Positions 6,001-9,000 of a stretch of DNA of 14,153 nucleotides are shown piece by piece (the stretch's first letter is position 1; each line of letters starts with the position of its first letter). A program made the position numbers. The DNA is from a virus: the UHGV virus genome UHGV-1658972; one strand, given 5' to 3'.

Positions 6001-9000
6001 CAACCAAAACGAATCGTCTGAACAGTCTACGGTTGTATCGTACCAGTTATCTATTGCACGCTTATGATATGGTTCTACAGCTTCCATCCAGCATCCTGCG
6101 CTCACCCAGCTAATCAGAGGGTATGACCCTCTTGGATCATGCCTACTGTGATAGGCAATGTTTGAAAGACTTTCCTCTCCTTTCATCAGATAGTCAGGGG
6201 AACACTTCAACGCATTAGCCAGGGCGAGAAGATTCTCTCCATTTGGCTCTGTCTCAGAGCGTTCCCACTGAGATATGGCAACATTAGACACGCCGACCAT
6301 CTTTCCAAGTGCGGCCTGCCTGATCTTGAGTTCTTTTCTCCGAGCGCGAATGCGCTCTCCCATCAATTGAGTTTTCATAGTTAAGACATCTTAAATAAAC
6401 TTGACTTAAGATTCCTTTAGTGGATAATTTAAGTGTTCTTTAATTTCGGAGCGAGTCTATGTACAAGAAAGATGTTATCGACCACTTCGGAACCCAGCGT
6501 GCTGTAGCTAAAGCGTTAGGCATTAGCGACGCAGCAGTCTCTCAGTGGAAGGAAGTCATCCCAGAGAAAGACGCCTATCGACTGGAAGTCGTTACAGCTG
6601 GCGCCCTGAAGTATCAAGAAAGCGCTTACCGCAAAGCGGCATAAGCAAATTGCTCTTTAACAGTCATGGTCCTCATTCCCGCCGAAATGCGGGAATACAA
6701 CGCGCATAAGTTGATGCGCATAACTTCTTATTTGTTAAGGAAATACTTACATATGGTTCGTGCAAACAAACGCAACGAGGCTCTACGAATCGAGAGTGCG
6801 TTGCTTAACAAAATCGCAATGCTTGGAACTGAGAAGACAGCGGAAGCTGTGGGAGTTGATAAGTCGCAGATCAGCAGGTGGAAGAGGGACTGGATTCCAA
6901 AGTTCTCAATGCTGCTTGCTGTTCTTGAATGGGGTGTCGTCGACGACGACATGGCTCGATTGGCACGACAAGTTGCTTCGATTCTCACCAATAAAAAACG
7001 CCCGGCGGCAACCGAGCGTTCTGATCAAATACAAATGGAATTTTAACAACATCCAACGAGGTAATTATATGCGAAACAAAGGCTTTAATCCACCTGATAC
7101 ACACAAAGAAGCTAAGCGTTTGCGCTTCCTTCGTTCCATTGATGAAAGAACTCAAATCTCTTTTGTGAAAGTTGCCAGAACTGAGTTTCTGAAGGCTGAG
7201 GCGAGGGCGTTGCTCCCGTCTCTACCAAAAGAGGAGGGATATACGTTCATTCCAAACGCATTTCTGGAAAAGCTTCTCAAAGAAGACATATCCGTAAGTC
7301 AGTTTAACGATGTTCTTAAGGTCTTTCGTCAAGGCAGGTAGTTATGAGCAATACAGCAAAAATCTACGATTTCAGCGCCGCACACGAGCGCAGGAGCAAC
7401 AGGATGGAGAACCAGAAAACTGGTTACATTCCGTTGTACCGGAGCATTCTGAAACAGTCATGGGCGAAAGATGTTTATCTTCGCACCCTGTGGGAAAACC
7501 TTCTCCTGAATGCCGCCAGAAAGCCATACAAAGCGAATTTCAAAGGTCATGAATGGCATCTGCAACCCGGTCAACTGGTTGTGACAGCAGCTGATTTAGG
7601 TCTTCAGTTATGCGACAGGCATGGCAAGCCAGCAAGCCGTGATCAGGTTGAGCGGATGCTTCAGGTTTTTGTGAAAGAGGGGATGATTTCCATTGATGGA
7701 GAGAAGCAAAAAGGGCGTGTGATCACCATCACAAATTACCATGAATACGCTCAAAAAATGGACAATTCACCCGCACATGAAGCCGCACAAACAACCGCAC
7801 ATGATGCCGCACATGATGAAGCCAGTAATGGCGCGGCTTTCAGCGTACATGCCACACATGAAAGCGCACATGAAGCCGCACAAACAACCGCACATCATGA
7901 ACAAGAAGGTATTAACAAGAATATAAATAATACCCCCCTACCCCCCAATGGGGGAGGCGATGGGCAGGTTAAACCTGAACGTCGCAAGGCAGAACGAATC
8001 GACTACGAATCCTTCCTGAACGCCTACAACACCGAAGTCGGTGACAGACTGCCACACGCTGTTGCGGTCAACGAGAAACGCAAACGCCGCCTGAAGAAAA
8101 TCATCCCGCAACTGAAAACGCCAAATGTGGACGGTTTCAGAGCGTATGTCAGGGCGTTTGTGCATCAGGCCAAGCCGTTTTACTTCGGAGACAACGACAC
8201 GGGCTGGACGGCTGATTTTGATTACCTGCTGAGGGAAGACTCGTTAACGGGAGTTCGGGAAGGGAAGTTTGCAGACAGGGGGATTGCATGAGACAGGATA
8301 TCGAAGCGAGCGTTATCGGTGGCCTGCTGATTGGTGGATTAACTCCAACCGCCAGTGACGTTCTGGCAACGCTTGAGCCGGAAGCGTTTTCAATTCCGCT
8401 CTACCGGAAAGCCTTCGAAGTTATCCGGAAGCAGGCGCGAAACAGAAACCTAATCGACGCGTTGATGGTTGCCGAGGCGTGCGGAGAGGAGCATTTCACG
8501 TCAATCCTGATGACCAGCAAAAACTGCCCGAGCGCCGCAAACCTGAAGGGATATGCCGGAATGGTCGCGGATAACTATCACCGCCGTCTGGTGCTGGAAA
8601 TCATGGATGAAATGCGTGAACCAATTCAGAGCGGAACCATCGACGCATCGAGTCAGGCGATGGATGAACTGGTAAAACGTCTTTCAGCCATCAGAAAGCC
8701 CCGTGACGAGGTTAAACCTGTACGGTTAGGGGAAATCATAACTGACTACACTGACACGCTTGACAGGCGTCTGAGGAACGGAGAAGAGTCAGATACCCTG
8801 AAGACCGGAATCGAAGAACTTGACGCCATCACCGGAGGGATGAACGCGGAAGACCTGGTGATTATCGCTGCTCGTCCTGGTATGGGGAAAGCAATGGCGC
8901 TAAGCGAAGGGATTTTACTTGCAGATGGCACCTGGACTACTCACGGAGAAGTCAAAATTGGCGATCGCATCGCGTCAATAGACGGGCTTCCTTCGGAGGT

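Follow-up and report, generated by a model that had tools for sequence, protein, structure and literature searches.

The DNA analysed here, a window of 14,153 nucleotides from the virus genome UHGV-1658972, carries a small open reading frame (ORF) of 90 codons between its cII gene and its replication initiator gene. A preliminary description of the window regarded this ORF as an extra gene. The locus raises three questions: whether the ORF is a real gene, whether its position is unusual for a lambda-like phage, and what its product might do. The features that define the locus are as follows.

6753–7046, plus strand: cII gene of the lambda type, 97 amino acids (Phage_CII, E=5e-48; 98% identity to lambda cII).
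7058–7061, plus strand: Shine-Dalgarno sequence GAGG of the 90-aa gene, 7 nt 5' of the ATG, read from the sequence.
7069–7341, plus strand: 90-aa gene of the PHROG 2519 family (ORF scan, sequence and profile match).
7333–7346, plus strand: junction of the ORF and the initiator gene, GGCAGG (the O ribosome-binding site) followed by TAG, TT and ATG.
7344–8291, plus strand: O-like replication initiator, 315 amino acids (PF04492, Phage_rep_O, E=3e-15; phrog_345, E=3e-100).

A protein-coding gene between cII and the initiator

The 273-nt ORF runs from an ATG at 7069–7071 to a TAG at 7339–7341. Its coordinates, its good Shine-Dalgarno sequence and its placing between cII and the replication initiator had all been given correctly in the preliminary description. 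The GAGG motif sits within a conserved boundary sequence, GAGGT(N)AATTATATG, and in an alignment of six divergent loci the stretch GGT...AATTATATGCGAAA is unchanged, with the preceding GA differing in one of them (L003). The encoded product has a mass of 10.5 kDa and a pI of 10.0. Its N-terminal half is indeed basic, as had been proposed, with 12 K/R against 6 D/E in residues 1–53 and a pI of 10.9 for this segment; the peptide originally quoted, KEAKRLRFLRSIDERTQ, corresponds to residues 13–29. An AF2 model (pLDDT 81) predicts a long basic helix over residues 10–51, then a β-hairpin (residues 54–59) and two short helices (residues 63–71 and 76–88).

The only plus-strand promoter returned by a promoter scan is pR (6401–6428). 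A search for CII boxes (TTGC-N6-TTGY) found no promoter box near the ORF, the boxes being confined to 6762–6775 (the pRE position), 12946–12959 (within the Q-like gene) and two distant leftward sites. The interval 7040–7350 contains neither direct nor inverted repeats, and an Rfam scan identified no family in the ORF region, only two tRNAs elsewhere. The ORF lacks a strong promoter of its own and is part of a cro-cII-orf-O-helicase unit transcribed from pR. This agrees with the earlier view that it is co-expressed with replication functions, as does the spacing of only 2 nt between its stop codon and the O ATG at 7344.

Selection was examined with homologues from seven loci, representing five distinct ORF sequences including that of the window and covering identities of 39–99%. 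Pairwise dN/dS in frame was 0.06–0.14, with dS near saturation, as against 0.9–3.3 in the two other frames. The full-length reading frame is open down to 50% identity in 15 of 17 aligned members, and in these the length is 86–93 residues; the remaining two, which are the most divergent (39–49%), are N-terminally shortened. Both the start (MRNK) and the C-terminal end (FRQGR) are kept among homologues, and 13 columns, spread over positions 39–86, are invariant among the 17. Disrupted copies occur as rare variants (P0021, P0022 and P0029). The ORF is a genuine protein-coding gene under purifying selection, far beyond a chance ORF, and its earlier description as well formed holds.

The same data bear on the idea that the gene is a decaying, functionless remnant of an initiator gene truncated during module exchange. 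In keeping with such an origin, the likeness of the C-terminal third of the product to the O domain is confined to the first ∼35 residues of that domain, after which the product ends, and sequences like the lambda O start lie at both ends of the segment (TCCAACGAGGTAATTATATG at 7051–7071 and GTCAAGGCAGGTAGTTATG at 7328–7346). A remnant would gather frameshifts and stops, however, and the low dN/dS at saturated synonymous change, together with the open, full-length frame in 15 of 17 members, effectively rules this explanation out; its probability is negligible.

The cII–initiator slot in lambdoid phages

On its cII side the locus is closely similar to lambda. The cII stop codon (7044–7046) is followed after 22 nt by the ATG of the ORF, and three minus-strand features overlap this region.

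6995–7022, minus strand: oop-type intrinsic terminator in the cII 3' end (scan; 12-bp stem and T run).
7064–7092, minus strand: putative oop promoter, pO-like (read from the sequence; spacer of 17 nt).
6990–7057, minus strand: putative oop-like RNA of ∼68 nt, antisense to the 3' end of cII and to the spacer before the ORF.

The terminator sequence is identical to that of lambda and conserved in related loci, and its counterpart in P22 is annotated ‘oop terminator’. The putative promoter has a -10 element, TATAAT, that is the reverse complement of 7064–7069 and overlaps the ATG of the ORF, and a -35 element, TGGATT, that is the reverse complement of 7087–7092 and lies in codons 7–8. The -10 element is embedded in AATTATATG, which is invariant in six loci. 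P22 has the same arrangement in its annotated oop promoter, which spans the start of orf48 (TGGTCA-17-CATAAT); in the window, a consensus scan left the putative promoter unreported because its -35 element matches at only three of six positions. If the RNA starts 7 nt downstream of the -10 element, it is predicted to fold (-21 kcal/mol, z=-2.6) into the terminator and a hairpin at its 5' end. The segment 6990–7057 matched no Rfam family; HK633, whose cII is 99% identical, carries the annotation ‘similar to lambda oop mRNA’.

These relationships raise the possibility that the 90-aa protein modulates the lysis–lysogeny decision together with cII, for example by stabilizing cII or through oop-mediated control. 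The ORF begins 19–28 nt after a cII gene in all 13 contexts whose sequence reaches upstream, and its 5' end overlaps the putative oop promoter. Any occupant of this position would follow cII, however, and the cII proteins found beside the ORF, at identities of 23–100%, show no co-variation with it. Moreover, searches of Pfam, PHROG and NCBIfam revealed no similarity to cIII-type or other known regulators, and the window already contains an ORF at 3262–3393 (minus strand) that we take to be cIII-like. A role of this kind is improbable.

On the initiator side, the O ribosome-binding site, GGCAGG, is formed by the last two sense codons of the 90-aa ORF. The junction aligns with the lambda O start region and is kept in the closer loci as CGTCA(A/G)GGCAGGTAG(TT/CG)ATGA, whereas the divergent loci have ATGA or 8-nt overlaps instead. 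In all 15 contexts read, the ORF ends 2 nt before the initiator start or overlaps it by 4–8 nt. RNA folding of five ORF-O junctions gave no occlusion of the O ribosome-binding site (z between -0.4 and +1.7 relative to shuffled sequences). The ORF and O are probably co-transcribed and translationally coupled, the coupling being argued solely from proximity since no mRNA structure occludes the O ribosome-binding site.

Conceivably, then, the frame could be mainly a cis-acting element, serving as a coupling leader for the initiator and as host of the oop promoter, with a peptide that has no function in trans. Its start overlaps the putative pO -10 element just as the lambda O start and the P22 orf48 start do, the 2-nt gap or overlap is kept across very different junction sequences, and other phages have small ORFs of unrelated sequence in the equivalent coupled position. 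Against this, strong constraint extends over the whole length of the protein (dN/dS ∼0.1, with invariant residues from position 39 to 86), and such conservation of amino-acid sequence is not expected of a pure leader. O also has its own ribosome-binding site with no predicted occluding structure, and lambda O is expressed without any leader. There is consequently little to recommend a purely cis-acting frame, and we rate it as unlikely as the cII-linked role.

Comparison with known phages shows how far the gene is ‘extra’. Lambda and the window have the same sequence at the cII 3' end and in the oop terminator, and in both the gene that comes next after cII has an oop-type -10 element across its start codon. 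That gene is O itself in lambda, which has no 90-aa gene at the cII-O position; here, ∼280 bp with the 90-aa gene intervene. The O start at 7344 is still lambda-like (MSNTAKIYDF, compared with MTNTAKILNF in lambda), and the old -10 element there now reads CATAAC. The claim of an additional gene thus stands with respect to lambda and fails for P22, in which orf48 (DUF2740, PF10872; phrog_1913; HK022-type) lies between c1 and gene 18. It occupies the same slot, directly after c1/cII and the oop terminator; the -10 of the annotated oop promoter (homologous ATTATG) lies over the orf48 start codon, and the 3' end of orf48 overlaps the gene 18 start.

Like the 90-aa product, P22 orf48 is a small basic protein, and a short motif near the N-terminus, HK..(K/L)R.RFL.S, is common to the two. 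It differs in being 48 residues long rather than 90, and DUF2740 is without the O-like C-terminal part. None of the 17 family members matched PF10872 at E<1, the phrog_1913 signal was weak (5 of 17 members, best E=0.0024), and a profile-profile comparison with DUF2740 members gave E=0.029 and a probability of 1.7% over 17 columns, so that homology is not established. The idea that the protein is a chimera with an N-terminal half equivalent to DUF2740/orf48 was therefore kept as a lead only.

A third occupant of the slot is the phrog_1331 gene (HK97 gp53, epsilon34 gp49, HK633_051 and ES18-type), which shares with the ORF the start context GAGGTAATTATG downstream of the oop terminator and runs into the 5' end of the O-like gene, as the ORF does in the divergent loci of the 90-aa family. 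Its sequence of 53 residues is unrelated; comparison with the 90-aa family by hhalign gave a probability of 0.06%. With the slot filled in P22, in HK633/HK97-type and in epsilon34/ES18-type phages, the notion of an unusual insertion has to be abandoned. According to Hayes et al. (PMC3349717), the lambdoid layout is cII-oop-‘orf’-O-P and lambda is the exception. The 90-aa ORF shows the three positional features of this ‘orf’ slot class (PMC3349717): it lies directly after cII and the oop terminator, starts in the oop -10 boundary, and ends at or overlapping the O-like start. The gene is the window phage's occupant of this recognized variable slot and, since most lambda-like phages carry a small gene there, a fairly ordinary accessory gene.

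The slot behaves as a mosaic module. The order cII, ORF, O-like gene, and DnaB or lambda-P was seen wherever a context extended far enough to reveal it; the shortest contigs, which end within or just after O or have no upstream part, are outside this count. At this constant position, the ORF is combined with initiators of four or more N-terminal types, with either of two kinds of helicase or loader partner, and with cII proteins of 23–100% identity. ORF and initiator core do not co-vary: one pair of loci has 84% identity in the ORF and 44% in O, another 50% and 88%. The ORF recombines independently of both cII type and initiator type. Moreover, Klebsiella and Yersinia phages with initiator N-terminal domains 74–81% identical to that of the window carry a KilAC antirepressor or a 265-aa regulator gene in the slot. 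The gene is thus variably present among relatives with the same initiator type, a point that the preliminary description had proposed to check, and, because these phages carry other slot genes, it is dispensable for that type. For three Enterobacter phages whose initiator is 47% identical, the comparison was limited to a search with the ORF, which found no match.

Family membership and the O-like C-terminal segment

All 17 aligned relatives match phrog_2519, and the window protein does so over its whole length (E=9.6e-57; residues 1–90 on profile positions 1–90 of 90). PHROG 2519 is catalogued as of unknown function, and neither PHROGs, Pfam, NCBIfam and RefSeq nor the literature searched assigns one to the family. 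The alternative that the ORF might be a conserved and characterized part of its phage group is thus correct as to conservation and incorrect as to characterization. Among 5,426 complete E. coli genomes, 279 (∼5%) carry the gene under the label ‘hypothetical protein’, as do most of 57 phage records; carriers include many Stx2a prophages as well as UTI89, E2348/69 and the E. coli type strain. CUS-3 also has the gene, which its reference record leaves unannotated, a gap that the present analysis corrects. The distribution is narrow and patchy and limited to Enterobacteriaceae. When 1.84 billion representatives were searched with a profile, 15 proteins were recovered, of which 13 are short relatives or fragments of the 90-aa family, and all eight representative family proteins looked up occupy the cII-initiator slot, none being found at another genomic position.

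The family profile had no match to PDB sequences at E<=10, and NCBIfam and PADLOC gave nothing above threshold for the 90-aa product. The best match to the PADLOC defence and counter-defence models was JetB (E=0.023, partial), and it was missing in the relative P0008. For the P22 counterpart, a literature search returned no paper mentioning DUF2740, and in the BstA paper orf48 is merely included in a P22 replicon clone. The ‘orf48’ of PMC12373910 is a library index of an unrelated gene; neither the 90-aa protein nor its DNA is present in the supplements of that paper.

The one recognizable relationship lies at the C-terminus.

7228–7332, plus strand: codons 54–88, with resemblance to an O/DnaD-type winged helix (PF04492, TIGR01610, PHROG and hhalign).

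The resemblance is to lambda O residues 25–59, which make up the first strand and two helices of the origin-binding domain. PF04492 is matched by 15 of 17 members over the same stretch (residues 55–88 against profile positions 6–39; best E=5e-5), all below the gathering score (14.4 bits for the window protein, against a cutoff of 28.7). TIGR01610 is matched by the relative P0009 (E=0.011; 16.2 against a cutoff of 45.5), and four O- or DnaD-like PHROGs fall on the same segment, among them phrog_678 (15/17), phrog_2365 (9/17) and phrog_16826 (4/17). Comparison with lambda O by hhalign gave E=0.0014 over 35 columns with a probability of 17%; the lambda O N-terminal domain and residues 54–88 have in common a G-[YF]-x-x-[IV]-P-N...L-[ST]...Q-F motif and a predicted strand-helix-helix, which is also the arrangement in the AF2 model. 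The O-like signal is to lambda-type profiles only, and hhalign detected no similarity to the co-resident initiator family (probability 0.2%). Taken together, this amounts to a weak but consistent resemblance of the last ∼35 residues to the start of an O-type origin-binding domain.

The 90-aa product is not a complete O-type initiator. It does not reach the threshold score, cover the full domain (profile positions 1–95) or include a C-terminal helicase/loader half; it ends after profile positions 6–39, with the recognition helix and wing absent. About one third of the lambda O domain is present, and a complete initiator is encoded immediately downstream. Origin iterons are likewise absent from the 90-aa gene and are found within the O-like gene, at 7759–7913, where a repeat with a 12-nt period is present in five copies.

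A possible role in replication initiation

The reading that we tentatively prefer, with a probability of roughly 0.35, is that the 90-aa protein is a dispensable accessory of replication initiation. It would combine a long basic helix with a strand-helix-helix unit descended from the opening segment of an O/DnaD-type winged-helix origin-binding domain. Lacking a recognition helix and a wing, and having nothing of the C-terminal half of an initiator, it could itself be neither an initiator nor a sequence-specific origin binder. Made together with O, from the same transcript and probably by coupled translation, it may act through protein–protein contacts with the initiator or with the complex that the initiator assembles, and its effect would be to tune initiation, which would not require it. 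A role of this kind is suggested by the combination of a real gene, a constant position, coupling to the initiator, no separate promoter, a link to the initiator fold, no occurrence outside the slot and the slot being a known feature. On the other hand, position alone is weak evidence, because lambdoid modules hold their place via conserved boundary sequences. The O-like similarity is below every curated threshold, with none detectable to the co-resident initiator, and specific contact with the origin-binding domain is disfavoured because the ORF sequence does not co-vary with the initiator core. The dispensability of the gene for this initiator type, and its absence from lambda, also count against the accessory reading.

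A more novel reading is a selected ‘mini-initiator’, in which the oligomerization-prone first strand and two helices of the O/DnaD winged helix, captured from a truncated initiator gene, are fused to the basic helix. As an anti-initiator or assembly factor it would dock on the O-type initiators of its own or of co-infecting phages and so tune or poison assembly of the origin complex. This is a long shot, a shade less probable than the cII-linked or cis-acting roles; if true, the oop-O slot would encode a level of replication control, or of competition between phages, that has not been described before.

Nearly as likely as an accessory of initiation, and doubtful in its own right, is accessory cargo of the ‘moron’ type, resident in a permissive recombination slot and directed at a target outside phage replication, such as host takeover, phage competition or counter-defence; the O-like stretch would then be a historical trace. 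The unrelated slot genes of relatives fit this well (DUF2740/orf48 in P22, the 53-aa phrog_1331 gene in epsilon34 and HK633, and the antirepressor or regulator genes of Yersinia and Klebsiella phages that share the initiator type), as do the independent shuffling of the ORF relative to both neighbours and its patchy distribution within Enterobacteriaceae, in 5% of complete E. coli genomes. Cargo of this kind is harder to reconcile with the partial PADLOC hit (E=0.023) as the best defence-related match, with a gene that is never at another genomic position, and with a sole homology signal that points to a replication initiator domain. Expression from the lytic pR operon, rather than from a prophage-active promoter, is also a poor fit to protection of the lysogen.

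The genes of the oop-O slot (P22 orf48/DUF2740, the HK97 gp53 type and the 90-aa family) lie in one of the best-studied of all regulatory regions, and no function was found for them. The resemblance of the C-terminal third of the product to the start of the initiator domain offers a specific, testable hint. If the protein has no role in initiation, it would be one more small accessory gene, and the practical yield is modest either way; if it does modulate initiation, the output of prophage induction would be affected, including the replication of Shiga-toxin phages.

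The 90-codon ORF and its family

The window contains a lambdoid early region which, between 6400 and 8400, is 99% identical to CUS-3, a P22-like phage of E. coli K1.

Early-region genes of the window
5728-6378, minus strand: cI-type repressor
6459-6644: P22-type Cro
6753-7046: lambda-type cII
7069-7341: 90-aa ORF
7344-8291: O-like initiator
8288-10681: DnaB-type helicase

The preliminary description of a well-formed ORF with a good ribosome-binding site and a basic N-terminus was confirmed. The ORF runs from ATG 7069 to TAG 7339-7341 (90 codons), GAGG lies 7 nt 5' of the ATG, and the 10.5 kDa product (pI 10.0) has 12 K/R against 6 D/E in residues 1-53. 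Pairwise dN/dS, taken from the DNA of seven related loci (five distinct ORF sequences, the window among them), was 0.06-0.14 in the ORF frame, with synonymous sites near saturation, against 0.9-3.3 in the other two frames. Because the ratio is low in the ORF frame only, a chance ORF or a decaying remnant is ruled out, and the idea of a dead gene can be dismissed almost entirely. The ORF is a real, selected member of the early-right operon that abuts the initiator start.

The ORF matches phrog_2519 (PHROGs, function unassigned) over its full length (E=1e-56). A word-indexed search across 5.8 billion proteins gave 33 relatives, and a full HMMER search with the family profile against 1.84 billion representatives gave 15 proteins, so the family is small; every named source is enterobacterial (E. 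coli, Salmonella, Scandinavium). The profile-search proteins are 32-164 aa long, excepting two giant matches that are presumably spurious. Most family members have 86-93 aa and an N-terminal MRNK, and strong conservation marks their common core (VARTEL.KA.AR...P.E.G..FIPN.F...L...D.S..QFN..L..F). Among 5,426 complete E. coli genomes, 279 carry the segment (UTI89, E2348/69, APEC O18 and the type strain are examples), as do 57 phage records, 49 of which are Stx2/Stx2a-converting phages. The CUS-3 reference record leaves it unannotated, and in 39 of the 40 E. coli records listed it bears the PGAP label 'hypothetical protein'. The preliminary description had raised the prospect of a conserved, characterised family: conservation is borne out by dN/dS and the core motif, but the family is catalogued only as a hypothetical protein, and the libraries and papers searched report no function for it.

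The window copy differs from the common E. coli allele solely at codon 40 (7186-7188), which encodes Phe (ARTEFLKAEAR); 14 of 16 other aligned relatives, CUS-3 included, have Leu, and the remaining two, which are the most divergent, carry His and Tyr. Rare variants (P0014, P0031, P0032, P0042, P0021, P0022, P0029) either join a cII or Cro N-terminus in frame to the C-terminal part of the ORF or are frameshifted and end in unrelated tails; they resemble scars left by deletions in defective prophages.

A variable slot and a constant neighbour

The window aligns with lambda through cII, and the lambda O start region (TCAACAGGAGTCATTATGACAAATACAGCAAAAAT) aligns with the window O start at 7328-7360; the ~280 bp between them carry the ORF, which is therefore extra relative to lambda. 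The earlier statement that cII is followed directly by the initiator is thus correct for lambda but not for P22, where orf48 occupies the same slot, between c1 and gene 18. HK633 and epsilon34 have a 53-aa gene in the slot, as do HK97, ES18, ST104 and Sf6 by their annotation, and the slot is known in the literature (Hayes et al., PMC3349717). Together, orf48, the 53-aa type of HK633 and epsilon34, and the account of Hayes et al. show that phages of this kind normally carry a small gene here and that lambda is the exception. The ORF is therefore a new and uncharacterised representative of a positional class already recognised among lambdoid phages; its family has a catalogue entry as a hypothetical protein.

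Homology of the 90-aa family to orf48 (Pfam DUF2740/phrog_1913) or to the 53-aa type (phrog_1331) was not demonstrable by hhalign (probability 1.7% and 0.06%, respectively). A short N-terminal motif common to the family and orf48 (HK..R.RFL.S), with weak phrog_1913 matches in 5 of 17 members, gives a possible lead to orf48 only.

Comparison with related phages, as had been proposed, revealed variable presence. The ORF is carried by 57 of the 69 phage records with the same initiator N-terminal domain. Two ORF-less records were read: a Klebsiella phage has a 265-aa regulator in the slot, and a Yersinia phage with the same initiator type has a 59-aa ORF plus a KilAC antirepressor. Searching gave no ORF match for three Enterobacter phages whose initiator is 47% identical and whose slot is unannotated. 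Slot content is thus variable among phages of one initiator type.

The neighbours of the ORF are constant in kind. An O-like initiator follows in 15/15 contexts read, even for members 39-50% identical, cII lies 19-28 nt upstream in all 13 contexts reaching that far, and the initiator is followed, where the contig is long enough, by a DnaB-type helicase or a lambda-P-type loader, both of which occur with the ORF. In closer relatives the true initiator start (M-S/N-N/S-T-A-K/R-...) is 2 nt past the ORF stop; in divergent relatives there is an overlap instead, of 4 nt (ATGA) or 8 nt. In the window the initiator ribosome-binding site, GGCAGG, falls within the last two sense codons of the ORF. Such proximity makes translational coupling plausible; folding of five ORF-initiator junctions revealed no RNA structure hiding this site. 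The suggested co-expression with replication functions is well supported as predicted co-transcription, since pR (6401-6428) is the only plus-strand sigma-70-like promoter found between 6300 and 8400.

Sequence identities are discordant across this unit. Between loci L003 and L006 the ORF is 84%, the initiator core 44% and cII 55% identical; between L006 and L012 the ORF is 50% and the initiator core 88% identical, and between the window and L013 the values are 39% and 79%. This indicates that the ORF tracks neither neighbour and behaves as an independent mosaic module. The initiators paired with it are of two MENQK-type subtypes, of a third type in L019 and, in L021, of the canonical lambda/P22-type O (...ERHVADLDDGF...). 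Stx2a phages share 98% with the window rightwards from 6984, and the point at which this similarity begins indicates that the conserved cII 3' end/oop terminator stretch serves as a recombination joint. Unrelated cargo occupying a permissive slot would be dispensable, would find unrelated genes in the slot of other phages and would lack co-variation with the initiator, all of which apply to the ORF; this explanation is a tentative one, though nearly as likely as the replication-accessory role considered below.

The oop-type unit and other features of the window

A strong intrinsic terminator (7022-6995, minus strand) lies inside the cII 3' end, in a stretch identical to the lambda oop terminator region, and the invariant AATTATATG at the ORF start reads TATAAT on the minus strand.

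Putative oop promoter elements
Reverse complement of 7064-7069, minus strand: -10 TATAAT, overlapping the ATG of the 90-aa gene
Reverse complement of 7087-7092, minus strand: weak -35 TGGATT, 17 nt upstream of the -10

The annotated P22 oop promoter over the orf48 start (TGGTCA-17-CATAAT) has the same build, which suggests that the first eight ORF codons probably double as an antisense promoter. The predicted oop-like RNA of ~68 nt (7057 to 6990) would fold into the terminator and a hairpin at its 5' end. The lambda-like -10 at the O start has decayed to CATAAC (7341-7346), which suggests that the oop-type promoter remained with the gene next to cII. A purely cis-acting leader or promoter role for the ORF is improbable, as it conflicts with the protein-level constraint. 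A cII-linked role in lysogeny, for which the one argument is position, is equally doubtful.

The mechanical cII ORF (6666-7046, plus strand) opens at an upstream ATG (126 aa), a form annotated in the CUS-3 record (L001 3267-3647). This is probably a start-codon misannotation, because the 97-aa lambda-like form from 6753 matches the Pfam CII model from residue 1. A 43-aa ORF (3262-3393, minus strand) contains ESLLERITRKLRDGWKR, which we take to be the conserved core of lambda CIII, and the phage probably has its own cIII gene there. CII-box motifs (TTGC-N6-TTGC) occur on the minus strand at the pRE position inside the cII 5' end (6762-6775) and at 12946-12959, within the Q-like gene (12634-13122), where an anti-Q promoter would be expected; the four matches in the whole window are not above chance (30/200 shuffles), and only their positions are suggestive. 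Genes for tRNA-Asn-GTT (13214-13288) and tRNA-Thr-TGT (13294-13369), both plus strand, lie between the Q-like gene and a holin-like gene.

Inside the O-like gene, plus-strand repeats at 7759-7913 (12-nt period, CCGCACATGA[AT]GCC-like, two blocks ~70 nt apart), translated as a repetitive AHEAAQTTAH... stretch, are likely origin iterons. The Walker-A loop of the helicase (GMGK|T) is interrupted by a 339-aa intein (8891-9907, plus strand) that includes a LAGLIDADG homing-endonuclease domain. The N-terminal Ala of the intein (AMALSEG...) suggests non-canonical splicing (class 2 or 3); its C-terminus reads ...IVTHN, with Thr as the next residue. In CUS-3 the helicase, with exteins 99.6% identical to those of the window, has no intein, whereas an Stx2a phage has a gene that equals that of the window in length (2394 nt).

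Predicted structure and possible function

Homology and structure prediction were the checks advised at the outset. The AlphaFold2 model built on the family alignment (pLDDT 81, pTM 0.60) has a long helix (10-51), a short β-hairpin (54-59) and helices 63-71 and 76-88; fold searches and a PDB sequence search gave no meaningful match. Beyond phrog_2519, one homology signal recurs: residues 54/55-88 match the very start of O/DnaD-type origin-binding domains. Pfam Phage_rep_O positions 6-39 were matched in 15/17 members (best E=5e-5), TIGR01610 at E=0.011, phrog_678 in 15/17, phrog_2365 in 9/17, phrog_277 in 2/17 and the DnaD-like phrog_16826 in 4/17, while hhalign against lambda O residues 25-59 gave E=0.0014 (29% identity, 35 columns). 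As all these matches fall below curated thresholds, the relationship is a consistent hint, unproven. The protein ends where the third (recognition) helix of the domain would begin, and it has no similarity to the adjoining initiator in the window. Lambda-O-start-like sequence flanks the extra segment at both ends. Plausibly, module exchange displaced an initiator gene whose 5' end gave rise to the C-terminal third, and selection has since kept this piece within a small protein.

From these data we infer, with a probability of about 0.35, that the product is a dispensable replication-initiation accessory, which would act through contacts with replication-initiation partners. This reading ranks first because of the initiator-domain-like segment, the invariable coupling to the initiator gene and the occurrence of the gene nowhere else.

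Overall, the original observation is confirmed and its interpretation partly supported. Slot genes sit in a classic regulatory region, yet none has a known function; the main value of the present ORF is the hint of an initiator-derived segment, which is open to experiment.
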